DNA from: Clostridia bacterium | GTDB lineage: Bacteria; Bacillota; Clostridia; TANB77; CAG-465 | DNA: 64,000 bases | NCBI GenBank assembly: GCA_045534225.1 | Contig: JAZSJJ010000005.1 | Location: forward strand, 93,712-157,711 | Reading direction: 5' to 3' | Part shown: positions 1,045 through 64,000 of the stretch, in pieces | How the letters are laid out: each line of letters starts with the position of its first letter | Numbering within the stretch: the first letter of the stretch is position 1 | Notes under the pieces: generated by a model | What the model saw: the letters and a program-made list of their open reading frames with translations, nothing else | What the model was told of the DNA's origin: nothing | Database searches by the model: none | Position numbers and translations under genes: made by a program

Positions 1045-2067
1045 ATGAAAAAGGGAATATCATTAATAGTATTAGTAATAACAATAATAGTTATGATAAT
1101 ATTAGCAGCAAGTGTAGTAATAACACTTAGCGATACTGGAATAATAAACAAAGCTAGTGAAGCAGTAGATTTAACGAATCAAAGTCAGGTACAAGATTTG
1201 GCTGCATTAATATGGGCTGATGCATATATGGCTAACAAAAGAGATGAAGCTTTAGCTACAGAAGTAATAACAAAATTAGGTGAACAAGGAATAGAAGAAA
1301 ACAAATGGAATATAGAAGTATCAAACACAGGAGTAACAGTTACTGTTAAAGACAGTGAAGTAGTTGCCGGCTTAGGTTCTTTAATTACTAAAGATAACTA
1401 TGGAGATACAGTGGATTATACTGTAACGGTAGATGGGGCTACATATACAGATTGGCAAATATATTATCATAATGAAGAGTATGTATATTTGATAACAAAA
1501 GATAAAATAAAAACAGGTTCACTACAAAAAGGTATAAAAGTAGCAACCTTAACAAGTGATGAACTAGCATTATATGAAAAATTTAGAGTAGGTAATGCTA
1601 CAAAATATACACTAGCAGATACAGTAAATGGCTATCAATCATATAATTCGCAAGCGGTAGCGGAACTAATAAAAGATTATGCGAATTTTGCTAATACAAC
1701 AGATTATGGAACAAATGTAGTAGGAGCAATAGGCGGTCCTACAATAGAGTTATTAGCAGCGGGTTGGAATGCAAAAGGGTATACACCAACGATTACTTTA
1801 ACAACAGATACATACGGATATAAAATAAATGGTAAGATTTATATAGATGTAACAGCAGATGAGCTTTATGTACCATCAAAATATTACTACTGGTTGGCAT
1901 CTCCGTCAGCTAGTGATTATCGTGGTTCTATGGATGTTGGTGGTGGCCATGTGTACAGCTATCGTCAATATACTGGCACATGTGCTTTCCGTCCAGTAGT
2001 TTGCCTAAAAGCAGATATCCCAGCAACAGCAGGAAATGGCGATTATGATTTTGAATTAGTAAAATAA
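1045..2067 (+). CDS. pilin-like N-terminal domain protein, paralog 1 (non-canonical prepilin-like leader and transmembrane segment)
   Basis: An AAGGAG RBS precedes the start. The N terminus MKKGISLIVLVITIIVMIILAAS aligns in register with the type IV pilin consensus KKGFTLVELLVVIAIIGILAA, but has Ile for Phe1 and Val for Glu5. The C terminus has a Cys..Cys pair (GTCAFRPVVC) that resembles a pilin D-region. Confidence 0.55.
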   Translation: MKKGISLIVLVITIIVMIILAASVVITLSDTGIINKASEAVDLTNQSQVQDLAALIWADAYMANKRDEALATEVITKLGEQGIEENKWNIEVSNTGVTVTVKDSEVVAGLGSLITKDNYGDTVDYTVTVDGATYTDWQIYYHNEEYVYLITKDKIKTGSLQKGIKVATLTSDELALYEKFRVGNATKYTLADTVNGYQSYNSQAVAELIKDYANFANTTDYGTNVVGAIGGPTIELLAAGWNAKGYTPTITLTTDTYGYKINGKIYIDVTADELYVPSKYYYWLASPSASDYRGSMDVGGGHVYSYRQYTGTCAFRPVVCLKADIPATAGNGDYDFELVK

Positions 2068-3610: not shown

Positions 3611-6600
3611 ATGGGCTTTGTACATCTACATATGCATACAGAATACAGCCTTTTAGATGGCGCAAACAAAATAGGTGAATTAGTAGCTAAAACTAAAGAA
3701 CTTGGCATGGATGCTGTAGCAATAACAGACCATGGCAATATGTTTGGTGCAGTTGAGCTATATAAAGAATGTAAAAAACAAGGTATAAAAGCAATCATTG
3801 GATGCGAGATGTATGTTGCTCCTAGAAGTAGATTTGAAAAAGAAGGTAAAGTAGATGCAGAACCAAATCACTTAGTACTTCTAGCTATGAGTAATAAAGG
3901 ATACCAAAATTTAATTAAATTAGTATCTATAGCATATACAGAAGGTTTCTATTACAAACCAAGAATAGACCTTGAAGTATTAAAAGAATATTCAGAAGAT
4001 TTAATTGCTTTAAGTGGTTGTATGGCTGGTGCTGTCGCTAGAAAAATATCAGATGGAGATATAGATGGTGCTAAGGAAACAGCACTAAAATACAAAGAAA
4101 TATTTGGTGACAGATATTATCTAGAAATCCAAGATAATAAATATAGAGAGCAAATGGTAATTAACCAAAACTTAATAGCGTTTTCTAAAGAGTTAGACAT
4201 ACCACTAGTTGCTACAAATGACTGTCACTATCTAACCAAAGAAGATTATTATTTCCACGAAGTACTTCTTTGTGTACAAACTAAAAAGAAAATGACAGAT
4301 GAAGATAGGATGACATTTGAAACAAATGAGTTCTATGTAAAATCTCCAGAAGAAATGATGAATGCATTTAAGAATGTGCCAGAGGCAATAGAAAATACAA
4401 TTAGAATTGCTGAAAGATGTAACGTAGAGTTTGTCTTTGGACATACAATTCTTCCAAACTTCGATATCCCTGACGGCATTTCGCACTATGATTTCTTTAG
4501 AAACTTCTGCTATGAAGGTATGAAAAAAAGATACAGTGAAGATATGTATGAGAAGGTAGCTGAAAGATTAGAGTATGAACTTGGTGTAATAGAAAAGATG
4601 GGGTTTATAGACTACTTCTTAATAGTTTCAGATTTCATTAGATATGCTAAAGAACAAAATATACCAGTAGGACCAGGAAGGGGTTCTGGTGCTGGTTCTG
4701 TTGCAGCATATTGTAGTGGAATAACAGATATAGATCCGCTTAAATTTGACCTTATATTCGAACGTTTCTTAAATCCAGAAAGAATAAGTATGCCGGATTT
4801 TGATGTAGACTTTTGTTTTGAAAGAAGACCAGAGGTTATAGAATATGTTGCAAGAAAATATGGCCGTGATCATGTTGCGCAAATAATAACATTTGGAACA
4901 ATGAAAGCAAAACTTGCTATTCGTGATGTTGCAAGAGCAATGGATATTCCATATGCTAAAGCAGATGTTATAGCAAAGATGATACCAAATGATCCAAAGA
5001 TGACCATAGATAAAGCTATAGAAATGAATCAAGAATTAAAGCTTCTTTATGAAAATGATGAAGAAGCAAAACAAATAATAGATGTATCTAAAAAGGTAGA
5101 AGGTCTGCCAAGACATGCATCTACTCACGCAGCGGGTGTCGTTATTACCAAAGATCCAGTAGACACATATGTACCACTTTATTTAAATCAAGAACAAATA
5201 TCCACACAGTATACTATGACTACTTTAGAAGAACTAGGGCTTCTTAAAATGGACTTCTTAGGATTAAGAACATTAACAGTTATTGCAGATGCTAAGTATT
5301 TAGTAAAGAAAATACATGATGTAGATGTGGACTTTGGGGATACATACGATGATTCAGGAGTATACAAACTGCTAGGTGAAGGAAAAACTAATGGAGTATT
5401 CCAATTAGAGAGTGGTGGCTTTAAACAAATGATGAAGGAATTAAAGCCGACAAATATTGAAGATATAGCAGTTATGCTATCTTTGTATAGACCAGGACCA
5501 ATGGATCAAATACCAAGATATATTAAGGCGAAGAATAATCCAGATGACATAGAATATACACATCCTGCTCTTGAACCAATTCTTAAAATAACAAATGGCT
5601 GTATGGTATACCAAGAACAAGTTATGCAAATCTTTAGAGAATTAGCAGGATACAGTTTTGGTAGAGCTGACCTTGTACGCCGTGCAATGGGTAAGAAAAA
5701 GATAGATGTAATGAATAAAGAAAGAGAAATATTTATTAATGGTCTTGTAGAAGATGGTAAAAGGGTAATAGATGGTGCAGTAAATAGAGGTATTGATGAG
5801 GCTAGTGCAAACAAAATATTCGATGAAATGGCGGAGTTTGCAAAGTATGCGTTTAACAAATCTCATGCGGCTGCATATGCTGTGGTATCTTACCAAACGG
5901 CTTGGCTTAAAGTACACTACCCAGCGGAATTTATGGCTGCAACAATGAACAGTTTCTTAGGCAACTTAGATAAAGTACCAGAGTATATAGCTGAGTGTAA
6001 AACATTAGGAATAAATGTATTAAGACCAGATATAAATGAAGGCTATGCTCGTTTTGCAGTAATAAACGGAAATATTCGTTTTGCTTTAGCATCAATCAAA
6101 AATGTTGGTGAAGGAGCTATAGAACAAATTATTGAAGAAAGAAAAAGAAATGGTAAATATGAAAACTTTGTAGACTTTATAGAAAGAGTACAAGGTGAAA
6201 GAGTAAATAAAAAGTGTATTGAGTCCCTAATAAAAGCAGGAGCTTTTGATGAACTTGAAACAGAATATAATCGTTATGATTTACTAGCAAGTTATGAAAC
6301 AATAATGGATTCTGTGGCAGGAGAAAAGAGAAATGGTTGTGAAGGTCAAGTATGTATCTTTGAAGGTTTTGGTATAGAAGAAACAGGAATAACAAATAGA
6401 AAGATATTAAAGACAGGAACGGTTCCAACTAAGAGAGAACTTTTAGATATGGAAAGAGAAATGATGGGACTATATGTTTCTGGACATCCATTAGATGAGT
6501 TTATGGATATAATACAAAAGAAAGCGACACTTACATCAAAAGATTTGAATGTAGAAACGAATACAGAAGAAACAGAAAGTGATGTGGATGAAAGTGTAAA

Positions 6601-8623: not shown

Positions 8624-11029
8624 ATGTACGATAAAAATATAGATAAAAAATGGCAAGATAAATGGTATGCCACAGACGCATTTAGCGCAAAAGATAATAG
8701 TGATAAAAAGAAATTCTATGGACTTGTAGAATTCCCATACCCATCAGGTATAGGTCTACATATAGGTCATGTTAAAGCATATATAGGACTAGAAGTTATA
8801 GCTAGAAAGAAAAGACTTGAAGGATATAATGTATTATTCCCAATTGGTTGGGATGCATTTGGTCTTCCAACAGAAAACTATGCTATAAAAACAGGAATAC
8901 ATCCAAGAGTTGTAACAGATAACAACATTGAAAGATTTACAGAACAATTAAAGAAAGTTGGTTTCTCTTTTGATTTTAACAGACAAATAGATACAACAGA
9001 TGAAAACTATTACAAATGGACTCAATGGATATTCTTAAAATTATTCGAAAAAGGATTAGCATACAAAGATATAACAGAAGTTAACTACTGTCCAAATTGT
9101 AAAGTAGTACTTTCTAACGAAGAATCACAAGGTGGAAAATGTGATAGATGTGATGGAGAAGTAATCCAAAAAGAAAAAGAAGTATGGATGTTAAAAATAA
9201 CAGACTATGCAGAAAAATTACTTGAAGGATTAGACGAAGTGGATTTCCCAGAGAGAGTTAGAGTACAACAAGAAAACTGGATTGGTAAATCTACAGGTGC
9301 AGAAGTAGACTTCAAATTAAAAGACTTAGACGACAAATTAACTGTATATACAACAAGACCAGATACAATGTTTGGCGTAACATTTATGGTTATAGCACCA
9401 GAACATCCAATGATTAAAAAATATGCAGATAGAATTGAAAATTTAAGTGAAATAGAAGCTTATGCTGTAAACGCTAAAAAGAAAACAGAGTTTGAAAGAG
9501 TACAACTTGCAAAGGATAAAACAGGTGTAGAAATTAAAGGCATAACTGTAATAAATCCTGCAAATGGTAAAGAAGTTCCAGTATGGGTATCAGACTATGT
9601 AATGATGGGATATGGTACAGGAGCAATAATGGCAGTACCCGCACATGATACTCGTGACTATGAATTCGCTAAGAAATTTGGAATAGATATAATCCAAGTA
9701 ATTGAAGGTGGAGATATTTCTAAAGAAGCTTATACAGATATAGCAAACGGAACAATGATGAACTCAGAATTCTTAAATGGTAAATCTGTAAAAGAAGCAA
9801 TTGCGTCAATGATTGAGTATGTGGAAACAAAAGGATTTGGACATGCTAAGACAAATTACTTTATGAAAGACTGGGCTTTTGCAAGACAAAGATATTGGGG
9901 AGAACCAGTACCTATTGTTAAGTGTGAAAAGTGTGGATTAGTTCCATTAAAAGAAAGTGATTTACCATTAACATTACCAAAACTTGAAAACTTCAAACCT
10001 GGTCAAGACGGTGAATCTCCACTTGTAGAAGCAACAGAATGGGTTAATACAACTTGTCCATGTTGTGGTGGACACGCTAAACGTGAAACAGATACAATGC
10101 CACAATGGGCAGGATCAAGCTGGTACTTCTTAAGATATATCGATCCTAAGAATGATTTATCTTTAGCAAGTATGGAAAACTTAAAATATTGGTTACCAGT
10201 AGACTGGTACAATGGTGGTATGGAACACGTAACACGTCACTTAATCTATTCAAGATTCTGGCATAGATTCTTATATGATATTGGTGTAGTTCCAACTCGC
10301 GAACCATATGCTAAGAGAACAACTCAAGGATTAATATTAGGTTCTGATGGCGAGAAAATGTCTAAATCTAGAGGAAACGTAATTAATCCAGATGATATAG
10401 TAAACGAATATGGTGCAGATACACTTAGAACATATATGTTGTTTATAGGTGAATATGATGCAGCTGCTCCTTGGAATGATAATGGAGTTAAAGGTGCTAA
10501 GAAATTCTTAGATAGAGTTATGAGATTAGATACATTGTTAGTAGACAAGTATGAAACTGTAGATGAAGAATATGAAAGAGAATTAAACAAGACAATTAAG
10601 AAAGTTACAGAAGATTACGAAGCTATGAAATACAATACAGCAATAGCTCAAATGATGACCTTTATAAATGTGGTATACAAGAAAGGTGTAATTTCTAAAG
10701 AGGATTTAGCTAAATTCTTAATAGTATTAAACCCAACAGCGCCACATGTAACAGAAGAATTATGGAATAGATGCATAGATTCTACATCTATGATAGTTGA
10801 TGCTTCTTGGCCTACATATGATGAATCTAAGATTAAAACAAATACAGTTGAAATTGCAGTTCAAGTATGTGGTAAGGTTAAATTTATATTAGCTCATGAA
10901 GTAGGTATAAGCGCAGAAGATTTAACAAAACAAGTTTTAGCAGATGAAAGATTAAAACCATTCATAGATGGTAAGGAAATTAAAAAGACTATAATTGTTC
11001 CAGGAAGGATTGCAAATATAGTTGTGTAA
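8624..11029 (+). CDS. leuS: leucine--tRNA ligase
   Basis: HIGH motif (HIGHVKAY) and KMSKS motif (EKMSKSRGN); class I aaRS length of 801 aa. Confidence 0.9.
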   Translation: MYDKNIDKKWQDKWYATDAFSAKDNSDKKKFYGLVEFPYPSGIGLHIGHVKAYIGLEVIARKKRLEGYNVLFPIGWDAFGLPTENYAIKTGIHPRVVTDNNIERFTEQLKKVGFSFDFNRQIDTTDENYYKWTQWIFLKLFEKGLAYKDITEVNYCPNCKVVLSNEESQGGKCDRCDGEVIQKEKEVWMLKITDYAEKLLEGLDEVDFPERVRVQQENWIGKSTGAEVDFKLKDLDDKLTVYTTRPDTMFGVTFMVIAPEHPMIKKYADRIENLSEIEAYAVNAKKKTEFERVQLAKDKTGVEIKGITVINPANGKEVPVWVSDYVMMGYGTGAIMAVPAHDTRDYEFAKKFGIDIIQVIEGGDISKEAYTDIANGTMMNSEFLNGKSVKEAIASMIEYVETKGFGHAKTNYFMKDWAFARQRYWGEPVPIVKCEKCGLVPLKESDLPLTLPKLENFKPGQDGESPLVEATEWVNTTCPCCGGHAKRETDTMPQWAGSSWYFLRYIDPKNDLSLASMENLKYWLPVDWYNGGMEHVTRHLIYSRFWHRFLYDIGVVPTREPYAKRTTQGLILGSDGEKMSKSRGNVINPDDIVNEYGADTLRTYMLFIGEYDAAAPWNDNGVKGAKKFLDRVMRLDTLLVDKYETVDEEYERELNKTIKKVTEDYEAMKYNTAIAQMMTFINVVYKKGVISKEDLAKFLIVLNPTAPHVTEELWNRCIDSTSMIVDASWPTYDESKIKTNTVEIAVQVCGKVKFILAHEVGISAEDLTKQVLADERLKPFIDGKEIKKTIIVPGRIANIVV

Positions 11030-11079
11030 TGATAGAATGAAAATATAAAATGAACAGAAGATGAAAGAGAGGAAGTTAA

Positions 11080-12498
11080 ATGGGGTTAGAAACATTAACC
11101 GTTATTCTACTGACTTTAAGTGGACTGGCTATATTCCTACTGGGAATGTCGGCACATAGATTTGCTGTAAAAGGCCAAATGAAAGAGCATGCTGATGTTA
11201 AACAAGCAGCATATATAGATGCTCTTACAGGTCTTGAAAATAGACACAAGTTTAATAAAGTAATATCCGAAATGGTAAAACATGAAGATAAAAAATTTGC
11301 ATTATGTTTCTTGGATTTAGATGATTTCAAACATATAAACGATAATATGGGACATGATGCAGGTGATGAACTTCTAATTGAACTTGGAAGAAGATTGGTA
11401 GATAGCCTTGGAGAACATGGTAGAGTGTTTAGACTTGGAGGAGATGAATATGCTTTAATAATAACTAAAGCAGACTCAAAACTTGAAGTAGAAACAGTTG
11501 TAAAAAGAGTAAAAAGAAATGTTACAATGCCAATAAACATAAGAGATACAAAAGTAAATCTTGAGTATAGCTTAGGTGTAGCGATGTTCCCAGACGACTC
11601 GAAAGATAGTGTACAATTAGTAAACTTTGCAGATTCTGCAATGTATTATATAAAAAAGAGTGGTAAGAGCGATTACTATTTCCATAACCCTGCACTTAGA
11701 GCTCAAACAGAAAACAAAAAGAGGATGGAAAAAGAACTTAAAGATGCTTACCAAAATAAAGAGTTTGGAGTAGATTTCCAACCAAGAATAAATCTTAAGA
11801 ATCCAAAAGAAATTTGGCTTGAAACATTCTTGTTTTGGAACCACCCTGCAGTAGGAAAATTAAAAGCAGAGTATTTCTTAAAGTTTGCAGATTCAATTGG
11901 GCTAATAATTGGAATAGACGAAATAATGATTGAGCAAACACTTGCAAAACTAAAAGAAATACGTGAAGCGGGACTTACTAATGTAAACATGGCAATAAAT
12001 ATTTCGCTAAGACATTTCCAAAGAAATGACTTTATAGAAAGACTTTGTGCAATGTTTGAAAATCACAAAGAAGAAGCAAAATGTATAATGCTTCAACTTA
12101 CAAGTAATATAAAAATAGAAAAGATAGAAAACTACAAAGTAATGTTTGAAAAACTAAGAAAATACGGAGTAAGAATTTCTGTATCAAACTTAGAAATAAA
12201 ACATGAAGTATTAGATATGTTCCATAGATTAAATGTTGATGAAGTAAAAGTAAGTGCAAGCTTCTTAGATTCAAATAGCATATTTAAGGAAAGTGTATTA
12301 AAAGATATAGTAACACTTTCTAAAGATCTTGGATATCAAGTAGTAATAACAAGAATAGAAGATGAAAATACACTTCAAAAAGTACTTAAATTAAAGGTAG
12401 ATATGGTACAAGGAAACTACCTTGCAAATGTAGTTGAAAGCGATAAATTAGTGCCATTCTTAAAAGAAGAAGTAATGAAAGTGTTAAGTAAAAAATAA
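11080..12498 (+). CDS. GGDEF-domain diguanylate cyclase with a C-terminal degenerate EAL-like domain and N-terminal transmembrane helices
   Basis: RLGGDEY motif (an intact GGDEF variant). The C-terminal region has the QPRINL core of an EAL domain but lacks the EAL and DDFGTG catalytic signatures. Confidence 0.7.
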   Translation: MGLETLTVILLTLSGLAIFLLGMSAHRFAVKGQMKEHADVKQAAYIDALTGLENRHKFNKVISEMVKHEDKKFALCFLDLDDFKHINDNMGHDAGDELLIELGRRLVDSLGEHGRVFRLGGDEYALIITKADSKLEVETVVKRVKRNVTMPINIRDTKVNLEYSLGVAMFPDDSKDSVQLVNFADSAMYYIKKSGKSDYYFHNPALRAQTENKKRMEKELKDAYQNKEFGVDFQPRINLKNPKEIWLETFLFWNHPAVGKLKAEYFLKFADSIGLIIGIDEIMIEQTLAKLKEIREAGLTNVNMAINISLRHFQRNDFIERLCAMFENHKEEAKCIMLQLTSNIKIEKIENYKVMFEKLRKYGVRISVSNLEIKHEVLDMFHRLNVDEVKVSASFLDSNSIFKESVLKDIVTLSKDLGYQVVITRIEDENTLQKVLKLKVDMVQGNYLANVVESDKLVPFLKEEVMKVLSKK

Positions 12499-12950: not shown

Positions 12951-13109
12951 GCCTAAATAAAATAGTGGATGTGGAAGTATATAGCAAGTAGTAACCACCA
13001 TACATAAATGTGTATGGTGGTTTTGTTATATAAATAAAGTTAAAAATATTGATAAAAAAGAGAATATGTAATAGTATAGATATATGGTAAAAGAAAAGGG
13101 GAGAAACAA

Positions 13110-14465
13110 ATGAAAAAAGGAATATCTTTAATAGTATTAGTAATAACTATAATAGTAATGATAATCTTAGCAGCAAGTGTAGTAATAACGATTAGCAATA
13201 CAGGGATAATAGATAAAGCAAATCAAGCAGTAGATTTATCTAACGAAAGACAAGTGCAAGATTTAGCTTCGATGATTTGGGCAGAGGTATATCTAGATGA
13301 ATCAAGAACGGATTCGATTGAAAAAGTAGTTAAAGATAAATTAGCAGATCAAGGTATAACTGATGAAAATTGGGATATAGTAGTATCTGGGACAGGAGTA
13401 TCTGTTACTACTAAGAAAGAGTCCGAGTGGCCAATTACTTGGAACATGGCGGAAATTACAAATAATATTTCAATAGATATTGGAGGCGGAATGCTATACA
13501 AAGTATCTGATGTAATGCTAACTGAAGGCCAGATGGCAGGAGCTGTAATATCTATGTCATCGGTTAGTATTATTTGCGCACCGTATTTTAATGAAGAGAA
13601 CATAAATGTTTATGCGGCTCTTGATGAAACATCTACATACCAATTAATACTGTTTGTTGTCGAAAAAGCTGGAGCTGTATGTCAACAATTTGGAGGAATC
13701 GTTTTCGAGGAATCGGGAATTTATGTGGCAGATGCGGGTGGAAATTTAGAAGGCCAAGATGTTAATTTATCATTAAATATCCAAAGTGGAATCTATGAAG
13801 AAACAATAACAGATTCATGGAGTGAAATCAAAACATATGTTGATAATGGGACTTATAAATCACATTATAAGTTGGGAGATACGAAAGGAATTAAATGCTT
13901 AGATGGTCGAACCATTTTAGTGGAAATTGTAGCATTTGATGCAGATGCTAAAGCCGATGGGACAAAGGCGTCAATTACATGGATGACAAAAAATATAGTA
14001 AACACTGGTTCGATGAATTCAACAGATACAGTTGTAGGTGGTTGGAAAGATAGTGAAATGCGTAATTGGCTACAGAATGATTTTTATGCTATTTTACCAA
14101 GTGAGGTAACAAGTTCTATTGTGTTAGTAGATAAGACATATTATGATTTTGATACTCGCTCTACATTATCTTGTTTGGATTCTCTATGGCTTCCATCTCG
14201 TCACGAAGTGTTTAGTGAAGAAACTGATACAGGTGCTTATCGTGAAGCTTCGGGAGTAGATTATAGTAGCTATTTTACAAGTAATAAAATAAGAATGAAA
14301 AAGTATAATGGATTACCACTACCTTGGTGGTTGCGTTCTAGTACAGGATTTTCGAATAGTGGAAAAGGGTTTAGTTTTGTTGAGGAAAGTGGCAAAATGT
14401 GTGGTTCAACTTCAGCTACAAGGGCGAACGATGTTTTGGGAATTGTTTTTGGATTTTGTATGTAA
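13110..14465 (+). CDS. pilin-like N-terminal domain protein, paralog 2
   Basis: AGGGGAG RBS. The N terminus MKKGISLIVLVITIIVMIILAASVVITISNTGIIDKANQAVDL is nearly identical to paralog 1. A C-terminal Cys pair is present. Confidence 0.55.
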   Translation: MKKGISLIVLVITIIVMIILAASVVITISNTGIIDKANQAVDLSNERQVQDLASMIWAEVYLDESRTDSIEKVVKDKLADQGITDENWDIVVSGTGVSVTTKKESEWPITWNMAEITNNISIDIGGGMLYKVSDVMLTEGQMAGAVISMSSVSIICAPYFNEENINVYAALDETSTYQLILFVVEKAGAVCQQFGGIVFEESGIYVADAGGNLEGQDVNLSLNIQSGIYEETITDSWSEIKTYVDNGTYKSHYKLGDTKGIKCLDGRTILVEIVAFDADAKADGTKASITWMTKNIVNTGSMNSTDTVVGGWKDSEMRNWLQNDFYAILPSEVTSSIVLVDKTYYDFDTRSTLSCLDSLWLPSRHEVFSEETDTGAYREASGVDYSSYFTSNKIRMKKYNGLPLPWWLRSSTGFSNSGKGFSFVEESGKMCGSTSATRANDVLGIVFGFCM

Positions 14466-14474
14466 TTAAAAAAA

Positions 14475-14510
14475 ATAACGGTATGAGCTTGTCATACCGT
14501 TATTTTTAGT
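14475..14510. terminator. bidirectional terminator
   Basis: Hairpin aacggtatga-gctt-gtcataccgtt with A-runs and T-runs on both sides, lying between convergent genes. Confidence 0.65.
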
Positions 14511-44920: not shown

Positions 44921-44962
44921 AAAACCTAAAGTATTGAAACACTTTAGGTTTTGTTATATTAT
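44921..44962 (+). promoter_or_regulatory. folD terminator hairpin overlapping a sigma-A promoter (TTGAAA-17-TATTAT) for the downstream pilin-like gene
   Basis: Hairpin aaaacctaaagt-attgaaac-actttaggtttt. The -35 TTGAAA (44934-44939) lies in the loop and the -10 TATTAT is at 44957-44962. Confidence 0.45.
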
Positions 44963-44990: not shown

Positions 44991-45770
44991 ATGATAAGTA
45001 AGAAAGGAATAAGTTTAATAGTTTTAGTTATAACAATAATAGTAATGGTAATACTTGCAGGAGCTGTTATAATTACTCTTGAAAATACAAACTTAATAAA
45101 ACATTCTAAACATGCTACGAATAGTACAAATTATGCGCAAGAGATAACAAGATTAGAAATAATAAAGAATGGAATACTAACAGATAACTTAGGAAAAATA
45201 ACAGTAGCAGAATATATAACAGAACTAACAAACAAAGGAATAATAGAAGGAACTGTAACAGATAATGCAGACGGAAGTAAAACGTTTACAACAGATACTG
45301 GAGCTGAAGTTACTGTAACACAAAATGGAGCTAGAGATTTGTTAATAAAAATAGCTGGCTATGAACAAGGTAATAATAATTCTTCTAGTAGTGATAATGC
45401 AGGTGAAGTTGCTGGTGAAAATCAATTAAACGGAACTTGGATGTTTAATGAAGAAATATCATATCATAATTATCTTGGATATAAAGAAGTAAATTTTACA
45501 TCTAACGGCGTAAGCTATATAGGTATGAATTTATGGGATGAAACAACAACAACTCCAACAGGTGCTGCAGTTTATAATTATGGTATAGGTTACAATACGG
45601 AAGCGCCTAAGTCAGGGAATTATTGGGCGGTAATCGCGTTTTCGTATAACATATCAGATACGGGTGTATGGAAATCCAATGCATATAGAACGATAGATTT
45701 TGGTACTTCTATACAAGATGTAGACGCTGATTTCTATACTTGGTTTATAGCTAATGCAACGAAACAATAA
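44991..45770 (+). CDS. pilin-like N-terminal domain protein, paralog 3
   Basis: AGAGAGG RBS. N terminus MISKKGISLIVLVITIIVMVILAGAVIITLENTNLI; the C-terminal region is unrelated to the other paralogs. Confidence 0.55.
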   Translation: MISKKGISLIVLVITIIVMVILAGAVIITLENTNLIKHSKHATNSTNYAQEITRLEIIKNGILTDNLGKITVAEYITELTNKGIIEGTVTDNADGSKTFTTDTGAEVTVTQNGARDLLIKIAGYEQGNNNSSSSDNAGEVAGENQLNGTWMFNEEISYHNYLGYKEVNFTSNGVSYIGMNLWDETTTTPTGAAVYNYGIGYNTEAPKSGNYWAVIAFSYNISDTGVWKSNAYRTIDFGTSIQDVDADFYTWFIANATKQ

Positions 45771-45789: not shown

Positions 45790-45825
45790 CCCCTAAGGTA
45801 AATCCTTAGGGGAATATTTTTATTC
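45790..45825. terminator. bidirectional terminator
   Basis: Hairpin cccctaagg-taaat-ccttagggg flanked by A and T runs. Confidence 0.7.
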
Positions 45826-48240
45826 ATTTTTGTTATCACCAGTATCAATTATAATATCAAAATCTGTAGGATTATTGAAATCGAATGATTGAACTGCTGG
45901 TTGATCATCTGTATCAATAATTGGTTCTACAAGGTTGTCATTTTCTTTTATTGCGTTAGATGAGAAACTATTTGTAGTAACTGAGTTTGCATCACTAAAT
46001 ATGTTGTCATCATCTTCATCTAAAATACTTGATGCTGCATTTGATGTAAGTGGTTTGTTTATCATAAACTTTTCAAAGTTGTACATATATGCTGGATGTT
46101 TTTGTTTGTATTTTTCTTCAAGGAAATCAACTTTACCTTCACCGAAAATACTATTTCCATTATCAAGTTTAGTCTTGTAGTAAATTGCTCCAAATTTATG
46201 CTCTGCAATTTTATGAACTTTGAATCTTTCTTTATCTTTAAGAGATACGGATTTCTTAGCCTTGAAGTTATCTGTTGGATCAAAGCTTGAAGACATATCT
46301 ACTTTCTTAGTCATACCGAAAGCTTTATTCCAGTATTCACTATCTTCAGGTACTGTATCACCAAATACGATTTGAGTTTTTGTATTGGCAAGTACAACTT
46401 GTCTATAATATTCAAAGCCTTTATTCTTTTCAAGTTGTGATAAGTTTTGTATTGCTATTGTAGCACCACATCTATATTTTCTAAATAGTGTGAACATTAC
46501 TTCTGTATCTTTGTTGATGTATTCAGGGAATTCATCAATGTATAAGAAGTGAGGTATACGAGAATCTTCTGAACCAGGTCTTCTTAGTACTGCGTCTTGG
46601 AATTGTAGTATGAAGAACATACCGAATGCCTTAGAAGCAATCATACCAAGTTCACCTTTTCTAGAACATGCTGTAATAACTTTACCTTCTCTTAAAGCAG
46701 CGTCAAAGTCTATAACATTTGTTCTACCACATAGAGCTCTCTTAATACCAGGATGTCTTAATAAGTTGTTTAATTGAGTTATAGCACCGTACAAGTATCT
46801 TTCGGTATCTTTTCTACCACTACCTCTTGTACCAGGTATTTCAAAACCATTTATATTTAATGTTGGTTTATAGAAGTTCTTCTCAAAGTATGCAATAAGT
46901 AGTTTATACTTTTCTGCAAGCTCTGGAATTTTCTTCATATCTTCTGTCATTTCTTCAACTTTATCAAAGTTGTATAGCATATCTAACACGTCTTCAAGTG
47001 ATGGTAATGCACCATTGTTAAGTCTTGGATACATTTCTTTAAGAAGTATAGATAGGTTTTGGAATGCGTCTGAAGTTAAGTTAGCAAAGAATGCTTCTTC
47101 TTTAGCGCCTTCACTTTGTTGCATAGATTTTAGAACGTCTGCTATTATTGATGCAACCTTAGCTGGATCTTCAATAGCAAATGGGTTCATACTTAATGTA
47201 TGTTCTGGATCTGCTGGGTCTATAGTTAATACATCGATGTCGAAGTTCTTAGCAACATTTGTAAAGTTTGTTACGTATGAGCCATCGTTTTCAACAACTG
47301 TAACACCAACACCACGATATACAACTTCACCAGTTTCGCTGTTATTATATAATATTACATCTTTTAACTCTGAGTAAAATTCTTTTTCTCTGCCTTTTTT
47401 AGGTTGTAAGTAATTTAAACTAAAATTTAGATTTATATATTCGTTAGAGAAAGGACCTTCTATATATGCAATACCTTTCTTTAATAATTCATAACCTAAT
47501 TTTTTAGAATACTCACGCAAGAAGTATTTCTTTTCAAGGTCTCTAGCACTCATTGGTAATAATACCATTGCTGTTTTACCAGTACCAGTAGCACCTTGTA
47601 CAAGTGTAGATTCCATTCTCTTCTTTTCAGGAACTACAATAGGTTTTAATGTTTCTACGTCTTTACATATAATATTTTCGCAAGTAAATATTCCGTTGTT
47701 AGATTTTGGTTTTTTAACACCTAAACCACCAAATGCTATAATACCTTTAGTAATATCGTCATCTCTTAATACTAGTAAAGCATAATCTACTAAAGAGAAT
47801 ATAGATATAAATGGTATACAGAAACAGAATGTTTTAATTGCTGGTCCAAATAATTCTGGATATTCAGTTATTAATAGATTATAGTTAGGTAGTTTTTCTA
47901 ACAACATCCAAACTACTTTATTGATGTTTGTTATAATTAATGAGTTTGTTATAGCACCCATTATACCAACGCCAATTATAAACCATTTAATTCTAGCGTC
48001 TTTGCCAGATATTAGTTTAGAGTTTACTCCGTATGAATACCATAATACAGGGCATACTAATGCGATAGCATATAGTATTGGATCTGGATAAATTGGTAAT
48101 CTACCAGCTGGTACTACAAATAATGTAAATACTTGTACTATTATAAATGCAACGACTATCATGGTAAAGAAACCAAATATCGATGCGATAAATTTGTTTT
48201 GATCTTTTATTTTAAGTTTACTAAGAATGTTATATAACAA
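45820..48240 (-). CDS. type IV secretion coupling protein-like ATPase (VirD4/TraG/TraD family), orphan
   Basis: Four to five N-terminal transmembrane helices; Walker A GATGTGKT; the characteristic C-terminal block FLYIDEFPEY ... IAIQNLSQLEKNKG ... NTKTQIVFGDTVPEDSEYWNKAFG (the LDEF / QSxxQL / TqIvfg pattern of T4CPs). No other T4SS genes are nearby. Confidence 0.65.
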   Translation of the reverse strand: MLYNILSKLKIKDQNKFIASIFGFFTMIVVAFIIVQVFTLFVVPAGRLPIYPDPILYAIALVCPVLWYSYGVNSKLISGKDARIKWFIIGVGIMGAITNSLIITNINKVVWMLLEKLPNYNLLITEYPELFGPAIKTFCFCIPFISIFSLVDYALLVLRDDDITKGIIAFGGLGVKKPKSNNGIFTCENIICKDVETLKPIVVPEKKRMESTLVQGATGTGKTAMVLLPMSARDLEKKYFLREYSKKLGYELLKKGIAYIEGPFSNEYINLNFSLNYLQPKKGREKEFYSELKDVILYNNSETGEVVYRGVGVTVVENDGSYVTNFTNVAKNFDIDVLTIDPADPEHTLSMNPFAIEDPAKVASIIADVLKSMQQSEGAKEEAFFANLTSDAFQNLSILLKEMYPRLNNGALPSLEDVLDMLYNFDKVEEMTEDMKKIPELAEKYKLLIAYFEKNFYKPTLNINGFEIPGTRGSGRKDTERYLYGAITQLNNLLRHPGIKRALCGRTNVIDFDAALREGKVITACSRKGELGMIASKAFGMFFILQFQDAVLRRPGSEDSRIPHFLYIDEFPEYINKDTEVMFTLFRKYRCGATIAIQNLSQLEKNKGFEYYRQVVLANTKTQIVFGDTVPEDSEYWNKAFGMTKKVDMSSSFDPTDNFKAKKSVSLKDKERFKVHKIAEHKFGAIYYKTKLDNGNSIFGEGKVDFLEEKYKQKHPAYMYNFEKFMINKPLTSNAASSILDEDDDNIFSDANSVTTNSFSSNAIKENDNLVEPIIDTDDQPAVQSFDFNNPTDFDIIIDTGDNKNE

Positions 48241-63682: not shown

Positions 63683-63829
<147 letters not shown>

Positions 63830-63876: not shown

Positions 63877-64000
63877 ATGCAAAAGAAACAAGGTATATCC
63901 TTAATAGTATTAGTTAGTAGAATAATAGTAAAGATAATATAAGCAGCAAGTATAGTAATAACATTATCTAACACCGGCGTAATAAACAGAGCAAGTCAAG
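63877..64000 (+). pseudogene. pilin-like N-terminal domain paralog 4, disrupted by an in-frame TAA (codon 22) and charged substitutions in the transmembrane segment; 3' end outside the window
   Basis: AAAGGAGG RBS. The product MQKKQGISLIVLVSRIIVKII*AASIVITLSNTGVINRASQ aligns position-for-position with paralogs 1-3, with Leu-to-stop (TTA to TAA) and the changes I to S, T to R and M to K. Confidence 0.5.

Follow-up and report, generated by a model that had tools for sequence, protein, structure and literature searches.

A dispersed family of modular proteins with a putative pilin-derived N terminus lacking Phe1 and Glu5 in gut Clostridia

Why do four genes dispersed over one stretch of a Clostridial chromosome begin almost identically and end in unrelated sequence? 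The question was raised by 64,000 nucleotides of contig JAZSJJ010000005.1 (Clostridia bacterium, assembly GCA_045534225.1; this whole stretch is hereafter called the window), and foremost by the open reading frame (ORF) at 13110-14465. The window belongs to a 31% GC chromosome of spore-forming Clostridia, and its genes include DnaE, LeuRS, PheST with a T-box, SpoIIP, SpoIVA, RNase Y and Obg. With moderate confidence, the four genes are read here as members of a large, lineage-specific family of modular, pilin-derived, Glu5-less surface proteins that would be displayed by a type IV filament.

The common start of the four loci reads (M)KKG/ISLIVLVITIIVMIILAA (here and below the slash stands after the leader Gly), and one of the four is a pseudogene. 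The three intact ORFs (1045-2067, 13110-14465 and 44991-45770) begin MKKGISLIVLVITIIVMIILAAS or MISKKGISLIVLVITIIVMVILAGA, in which a short basic leader is followed by the string GISLIVLVITIIVM[IV]ILA. A 26-base pattern taken from the common 5' region has exactly four sites in the window, these being the four loci, with none expected from 100 shuffles; ORFs, pseudogene sequence and pattern together bear out the original prediction of four near-identical starts. The likeness is limited to the N-terminal part: by BLASTP, loci 1 and 2 share 65% identity in residues 1-102, the match of locus 3 is confined to approximately residues 1-85, and the C-termini of the loci are unrelated. The four loci, in which the shared part is termed the N-terminal module (N-module), are as follows.

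1045 to 2067, plus strand: locus 1, 340 amino acids (aa); N-module and a globular C-terminal domain with a fold without known match; 38 full-length homologues; AlphaFold2 (AF2) model of pLDDT 89.7.
13110 to 14465, plus strand: locus 2, the focal gene, 451 aa; pilin-like N-module, beta-rich middle and DUF6273 C-terminal module.
44991 to 45770, plus strand: locus 3, 259 aa from the ATG; same leader and helix, divergent juxtamembrane sub-family, different C-terminal domain.
63877 to 64000, plus strand: locus 4, a pseudogene copy cut by the window end, recognized by sequence and pattern match.

The reading frame of locus 3 is open back to a TTG at 44934. Locus 4 was taken to be a pseudogene because it carries an in-frame TAA (63940-63942) and substitutions inside the hydrophobic stretch, charged residues among them, in which I became S, T became R and M became K.

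The family extends far beyond the window. A protein search returned 975 relatives in which the first ~100 residues recur almost unchanged before many different C-termini, and in a scan of one genome per species the pattern matched more than 577 times, with 228 of these matches confirmed. Genomic neighbourhoods were taken from the best 80 of these 228 loci; the 80 lie in about seven 'Clostridia bacterium' metagenome-assembled genomes (MAGs) from sheep rectum and related (ruminant) gut samples. At least 103 distinct copies, of 102-732 residues, were present in 1.15 Mb of those MAGs, and five of the MAGs hold at least 31, 20, 17, 15 and 14 copies, these counts being lower bounds as they cover the best 80 loci only and a divergent sub-family of the locus 3 kind escaped the search pattern. 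When a profile of the soluble part alone was used (residues ~28-105, helix omitted), 612 clusters at 50% identity were retrieved; in the top 150 of these, the match begins at residue 28-30 wherever the N terminus is complete, and all carry the identical helix. The family genes are monocistronic and scattered among housekeeping genes, and clustering of all ORFs around the 103 copies revealed no recurrent partner gene.

Judged by their sequences, the C-termini appear to be interchangeable modules of a binding type. Recognizable domains among 148 members were BspA-type leucine-rich repeats (LRR_5; 25 members), LRR_8 (13), DUF6273 (13), Hint (3), Big_2 (1) and Beta_helix (1); most other members had no Pfam match in the C-terminus. 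The predictions that the C-terminal domains differ between the loci and that the C-terminal modules are variable thus hold, both within the window and across the family. In locus 2, DUF6273 (PF19789) covers residues 298-429 (E 3.4e-15; 56.7 bits against a gathering threshold of 23.5), and Foldseek related the fold of the C-module to 18 gut-phage DUF6273 or receptor-binding proteins, with E values down to 7e-12. DUF6273 is common in phage receptor-binding proteins, and a resemblance to C-type lectin has been described (PMC10743442).

The architecture proposed for the family comprises a short basic leader ending in Gly, a near-invariant helix of 20-23 residues with a small head (an N-module of ~105 residues in all), and a swappable C-module. 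In the focal gene the corresponding parts are these.

13110 to 13121, plus strand: leader MKKG, hydrophilic, with the invariant Gly as its last residue; putative site of prepilin-type cleavage after G4.
13122 to 13190, plus strand: hydrophobic, alpha1-N-like helix ISLIVLVITIIVMIILAASVVIT, 23 residues, with Ile+1, Val+5 and no acidic residue; AF2 helix 7-30.
13191 to 13424, plus strand: soluble part of the N-module, residues 28-105; AF2 helices 33-39, 46-62 and 70-80, strands 88-93 and 96-101.
13434 to 13775, plus strand: middle beta-rich domain, residues ~109-222; AF2 pLDDT 60-85, no Pfam match.
13797 to 14462, plus strand: C-terminal globular module with DUF6273 by Pfam match; pLDDT about 90; probable ligand-binding domain.

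The 23 uncharged residues of ISLIVLVITIIVMIILAASVVIT fall within the 20-25 hydrophobic residues looked for in a type IV pilin. In the 103 paralogues the leader is of 3-13 residues, basic, and always ends in Gly, which is preceded by K, Q, N, R, E or T; Ala replaces this Gly in one of 181 database members (P0235). Val+5 is invariant (103 of 103) and Ile+1 nearly so (102 of 103), so that the pairing of Glu5 with Phe or Met at position 1 is absent, and the exchange of Phe1 for Ile and of Glu5 for Val noted in the original prediction is a property of the family. Conservation starts exactly after the leader Gly: among 245 sequences, mean pairwise identity falls from 93% at positions +1-19 to 70% at +20-28, 53% at +29-61 and 27% at +62-99, and since such an N-to-C gradient is typical of pilins, it supports the pilin reading. 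At the DNA level, Ser+2 of the 103 copies is encoded by TCT, TCA, TCC, AGT, TCG and AGC, that is, by both the TCN and AGY families, Val+5 by 48 GTA and 48 GTT codons, and the Val, Ile and Gly codons are near genome-wide usage. With synonymous codons varying freely while the amino acids are fixed, the helix is shown to be under very strong purifying selection rather than kept alike by recent gene conversion; the sequences imply that this selection acts residue by residue on the membrane helix, across hundreds of paralogues.

What the conserved helix is derived from is suggested by a comparison with small pilins of related bacteria. In its published anatomy the class III signal has a hydrophilic leader with Gly at the end, then ~21 hydrophobic residues, with Glu5 present 'often but not always' (PMC10191384; PMC8179133), and the N terminus of the family agrees with this anatomy. 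The lead to the pilins was given by a 455-aa IMG/VR protein starting KG/ITLIALVITIIVMLILVAV, the N terminus of which matched 450 proteins; among the 120 matches listed, nearly all are 78-107 residues long. The N-module aligned with these small KG/ITLIALVITIIVMLILVAV proteins over 61 columns (hhalign Prob 98.9%, E 1.6e-17), the alignment reaching approximately residue 56, ~25 residues past the hydrophobic helix and into the soluble helix (N.G..xxAxxAxxxTN), and the two hydrophobic helices differ at ~5 of 20 positions. The operon pilin itself matches PF07963 weakly (E 0.0012; 18.8 bits against a threshold of 21.2). By these sequence comparisons, the N-module was shown to be homologous to the ~80-residue pilin of type IV pilus operons in related AT-rich, spore-forming Clostridia, and operon pilins and window family form, as far as their sequences tell, a pilin clade without Phe1 and Glu5 throughout.

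The genomic position of the small pilins is consistent. In two sister-lineage loci (L086 and L089) the operon encodes, in order, a PilM-like protein (538 aa), two small membrane proteins, the small pilin, A24_N_bact (250 aa), a 140-aa protein starting RG/FALTDAII, PilB (T2SSE, 542 aa), PilT (T2SSE, 366 aa) and PilC (T2SSF, 448 aa). A metagenome scan with the sister-operon PilB added seven contigs, and in all four of those that reach far enough upstream a KG/ITL[IV]AL[IV]ITIIVMLILV gene lies ~1.5 kb before PilB. Overall, the small pilin was found inside a type IV pilus operon (PilMNO-like, A24_N, PilB, PilT, PilC) in six of six independent contigs with readable position. The 140-aa pilin-like protein beside it (L086 11189-11617; L089 4184-4606) has Phe+1 and Asp+5 (RG/FALTDAII, RG/FGLADAII), and two kinds of pilin N terminus therefore occur in one operon. 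No paper was found that contains the motif strings, describes the KG/ITLIALVITIIVMLILVAV operon pilins or describes this operon type. The claim that the family is undescribed stands to that extent; the NCBI and IMG pipelines already tag some of its members as 'type II secretion system protein' or 'pseudopilin PulG'.

DUF6273 also occurs on canonical pilins: an N_methyl pilin is fused to this domain in P0005 / L004, and the existence of such fusions marks DUF6273 as a module that real pilins carry. In L004, a genome of 41% GC, two canonical pilins fused to DUF6273 (KxGFSLVELxVVIAIMAI, weak N_methyl match; 4777-6378 and 10001-11911) lie 5 kb apart, beside a 1132-aa protein with CBM_X2 and DUF6273.

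If the N terminus functions as a class III signal of a non-canonical kind, membrane insertion of the protein would leave the leader on the cytoplasmic side, and a type IV filament would then take up the protein by way of its helix. The absence of Glu5 makes the role of a cap or minor subunit the most probable one; the C-terminal binding module would thereby be exposed beyond the cell wall, and the dozens of paralogues would constitute a repertoire of alternative adhesive heads. A bolder proposal, which we consider unlikely though worth stating, is that an undescribed branch of type IV filaments exists in gut Clostridia, with GISL/GITL-type subunits without Phe1 and Glu5, an A24-like protein that has kept its methylase / zinc-finger domain and lost both catalytic aspartates, and a library of interchangeable lectin, LRR and Hint tips. 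In such a branch the leader would not be removed, or would be removed by something else, and in one lineage the subunit gene would have given rise to dozens of dispersed copies, each transcribed on its own and each with a different head.

Display by a filament has to be weighed against a series of findings that speak the other way. The first of these concern the pilin relationship itself. The check proposed with the original prediction, a search with PF07963 and the pilin and pseudopilin families, left the three window proteins unmatched at E<1 by both PF07963 and TIGR02532 (NCBIfam), and none of 148 members matched PF07963 at E<=1e-3. On the side of a pilin relationship, the TadF model (PF16964) was matched by seven of the 148 at E<=1e-3, the best at 5.4e-5 and all below threshold; locus 2 aligned weakly with it along residues 4-107 (13.1 bits against a threshold of 27.3). 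Hhalign comparison with Escherichia coli PpdD and GspG-J gave scores of 22, equal to that of an unrelated N-terminal membrane-anchor control, and for this reason the link to pilins runs only through the non-canonical operon pilins. The predicted class III register stands on leader and helix anatomy and on homology to the operon pilins, and not on any match to PF07963 or TIGR02532.

The predicted structures are a second point. The AF2 models of loci 1 (pLDDT 89.7) and 2 (79.7) concur on the N-module, with a helix from residues ~4-7 to ~30-39, a low-confidence hinge at the SNTG motif, helices at 46-62 and 67/70-80, a hairpin at 88-101 and then independent globular domains. As modelled, this head of three helices and a two-stranded hairpin does not resemble the classical pilin fold, in which an alpha1 helix of ~50 residues is packed on an antiparallel beta-sheet. 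Foldseek searches with both models found no pilin and no significant PDB match, the model of locus 1 having none at E<0.001, and the locus-1 family profile found no pilin among PDB sequences and nothing below E 0.05.

A third point is the machinery. PilB, PilC and PilD were sought in the window by Pfam scans of 30 large ORFs and by phmmer against every ORF of at least 50 aa, with E. coli HofB, HofC, GspE, GspF and GspO and all nine Clostridial operon proteins as queries; none was found in the 64 kb, as the original prediction had stated. The proposed search for a peptidase and assembly ATPases elsewhere was also negative, phmmer finding only the family itself and SpoIIIAA in the ~1.2 Mb covered, which is a minority of each of the lineage's MAGs, and owing to this coverage absence of the machinery from the lineage is not established. 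PilB, PilC, PilT or the A24 protein adjoin none of the 103 family genes. In sister lineages the pilus operon is located just upstream of mutL-miaA; four genomes from the lineage of the window and from relatives have mutS at the syntenic site, with or without DUF2207. Among the candidates discarded, a weak PilB-like match in L055 proved to be SpoIIIAA of the spoIIIA operon, a Walker A regular expression for PilB returned ABC transporters only (and would miss the APTGEGKT variant), and a GxGD expression for the peptidase returned one unrelated protein only; both expressions were superseded by phmmer.

Finally, processing of the leader is in doubt. The A24-like proteins of the sister operons (L086 10415-11167; L089 3341-4099; L093, L094, L095 and L098) keep the four-Cys methylase domain (E 3e-29); the Peptidase_A24 model does not match them at E<=1, and an alignment of six sequences revealed neither a GxGD motif nor any invariant Asp. 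Two aspartates of the prepilin peptidase have been described as universally conserved and critical for cleavage (PMC10191384). Since both the peptidase signature and an invariant Asp are wanting, leader cleavage is uncertain even in the sister lineages, and from their sequences the A24-like proteins may be catalytically dead.

Several of these findings lend weight to the alternative that survives best, and which we hold to be quite possible, if short of probable: that the proteins descend from pilins but are independent of any pilus, the N terminus being an uncleaved signal-anchor of a type II membrane protein with variable surface binding modules, and the helix being kept constant by some other demand, for example that it associates with itself or is recognized by a dedicated insertase or protease. 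The lack of pilus genes near all 103 copies and in the ~1.2 Mb, their absence from the syntenic site, the monocistronic and scattered genes, the AF2 head that departs from the classical pilin fold, and the seemingly dead A24-like protein of the relatives' operon would all be accommodated by such an anchor. However, 19 consecutive residues that are ~93% identical across hundreds of paralogues, with synonymous sites free, are unlike ordinary anchors; the helix differs from that of the operon pilins at only ~5 of 20 positions; and it was only a minority of each genome that was inspected.

It is very improbable that the family is a conventional secreted or lipid-anchored one, its N terminus serving as an ordinary Sec signal peptide for signal peptidase I or as the signal of a lipoprotein. 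A basic n-region followed by a hydrophobic stretch, and the small-residue motif L-A-A-S 17-20 residues past the Gly, would suit a Sec signal, but the hydrophobic stretch of ~23 residues is far longer than a typical Sec h-region, conservation runs from the Gly through and past the supposed signal, which is unexpected for a discarded peptide, and the N-module is homologous to the operon pilins. No member has a Cys or lipobox in its first ~60 residues, as a bacterial lipoprotein would. Least credible of all is the recent spread of a 5' cassette, by duplication or gene conversion, with an unconstrained helix, as in the variable surface proteins of mycoplasmas, for which dispersed copies alike at the DNA level in 5' but not 3' parts and a (CA)14 repeat upstream of one copy might speak, but which is largely refuted by near-saturated synonymous positions with amino acids fixed in 103 copies from at least seven genomes, and by upstream regions that are not conserved. 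Filament display of a pilin-derived module remains the reading we prefer.

The original prediction also likened Cys..Cys pairs at the C-terminal ends to a pilin D-region disulfide loop. The cysteines exist, but the pair is not conserved: among 39 locus-1 homologues C320 is invariant and position 313 is Cys in three, and C431 of locus 2 is present in the four closest sequences only. As the pair sits in separate C-terminal modules and not in the pilin head, a D-region disulfide was rejected. A phage origin of the N-module was likewise rejected, no match being found in 50,697 phage genomes and the single IMG/VR match covering the helix only (residues 1-47, GITL-type). The 455-aa protein named above is encoded at 9986-11353 of the IMG/VR contig L085, which is classed as viral, and has an operon-type helix, KGITLIALVITIIVMLILVAV, followed by Big_2 and a large C-terminal domain. 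Small proteins consisting of the N-module alone were considered as major pilin candidates, and their context was uninformative: P0181 is on a 1-kb contig, and the 102-aa member in L060 (2005-2313), near rimP-nusA-infB, is followed by a 151-aa collagen-like protein with GPQ/GAT repeats (L060 2005-2846).

The focal gene appears from its sequence to be monocistronic, between two terminator-like hairpins. Its orthologues P0001-P0003 are 66-99% identical, the JAZOWO copy being 99% identical, and an exact-sequence look-up of the focal protein found no record. The flanking features are the following.

12993 to 13022, no strand assigned: second terminator-like hairpin, which separates locus 2 from the tRNA cluster.
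13049 to 13077, plus strand: promoter-like site, TTGATA-17-TAGTAT, 9 of 12 matches; the regional count of such sites is not above the shuffled background.
14471 to 14507, no strand assigned: bidirectional terminator-like hairpin with a 16-bp stem, then a T run; three such sites against 0.4 expected.

Directly upstream of the tRNA cluster and locus 2, at 11080-12498 on the plus strand, is a gene for a GGDEF and EAL protein of cyclic-di-GMP turnover. Between folD/locus 3 and pth lies an orphan homologue of TraG/VirD4-like coupling proteins (45820-48240, minus strand; 806 aa, N-terminal membrane domain); no other conjugation genes accompany it, and it is found also in L040 (JAZOWO, a closely related MAG). 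The locus 3 sub-family, with its different juxtamembrane segment, ..NY.QE..RL..IKNG.LTDNLGKIT..EYITELTNKG, includes another member in L001 (2020-3246); the sub-family has a recurrent C-terminal motif, YRT[VI]DFGT..Q.V..EFY.WF.ANA, and one member a variant helix, GVSLIVLSITILVMAILAA. The (CA)14 repeat (63717-63745) is in a tiny ORF ~130 bases upstream of the locus 4 pseudogene and could be a slipped-strand switch. In other genomes DUF6273 is preceded by a different conserved N terminus, MDKETLSNYGWIVICVLVLAVMIALATPFG, with no relation to the first (P0004, P0007, P0009, P0011, P0012, P0014 and P0017), and it may be another display signal of the Gly-plus-hydrophobic-helix kind.

If the family members are filament subunits, an entire clade of pilins escapes PF07963/IPR012902 and PilFind-type rules, which look for Phe1 and Glu5, and standard signatures leave at least 14-31 family genes per sampled genome undetected. 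A filament made from or capped by subunits that lack Glu5, with a peptidase homologue alongside that has no catalytic aspartates, would then bear on a current idea of subunit docking, in which a salt bridge from Glu5 to the N-terminal amine neutralises charges and/or drives docking. With dozens of exchangeable heads, C-type-lectin-like and LRR, gut anaerobes would have a new route of adhesion diversification, parallel to the phage receptor-binding proteins with the same DUF6273 fold. If, on the other hand, the proteins are pilus-independent anchors, a pilin helix would have been reused as a general anchor for surface display.

Several known systems invite comparison. Archaeal proteins with class III signals, such as the sugar-binding proteins of the Sulfolobus 'bindosome', are diverse extracellular proteins with a Glu5-less, pilin-type N terminus and scattered genes; they belong to a different domain of life with the peptidase PibD/FlaK, and we know of no detectable sequence relationship between them and the family. 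Unlike the TadF pseudopilin (PF16964), the family scores below the threshold of that model, and no Tad genes were seen. The Glu5-less minor pilins that form a cap (GspK, PilX, PilK) share with the family an aliphatic residue directly after the Gly and the lack of Glu5; the start of E. coli GspK, QRG/VALLIVLMLLALMAALAA, may be compared with KKG/ISLIVLVITIIVMIILAA of the family. A Glu5-less subunit has been placed at the filament tip (PMC10191384). The window proteins had no Pfam match at E<1 to a T2SSK-type domain, the likeness to GspK being one of N-terminal pattern only, and GspK, a single-copy protein encoded within its operon, has GspI and GspJ as partners, neither of which was found here.

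Closest in sequence are the small KG/ITLIALVITIIVMLILVAV operon pilins (L086, L089 and L093-L098), which are homologous to the family over ~61 residues, lack Phe1 and Glu5 likewise, and have the same extreme conservation of the helix. They differ in being of ~80 residues without an extra module, in being encoded once per operon within the pilus genes, and in a head unlike that of the family. Closest in design are the modular pilins PilB and PilC of Streptococcus sanguinis, in which a short N-terminal pilin module is joined to a bulky functional one, in many cases of the lectin or adhesin type (Raynaud et al., 2021; PMC8179133). Modular pilins occur in many architectures under one N-terminal motif and have been proposed to be exposed at the filament tip (PMC8179133). 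Like them, the family joins its N-module to a domain foreign to the pilus, be it DUF6273, LRR_5, LRR_8, Hint, Big_2 or Beta_helix. Modular pilins carry the IPR012902/PF07963 motif with Phe1 and Glu5 and number one to few per genome, encoded with pilus genes; in the family this motif is undetected, Phe1 and Glu5 are absent, and at least 14-31 dispersed, monocistronic genes are present per genome. The family is set apart from the modular pilin concept by machinery that has so far not been found, a signal that standard signatures do not see, a helix without Glu5 and Phe1, and dozens of copies per genome as dispersed, monocistronic genes.

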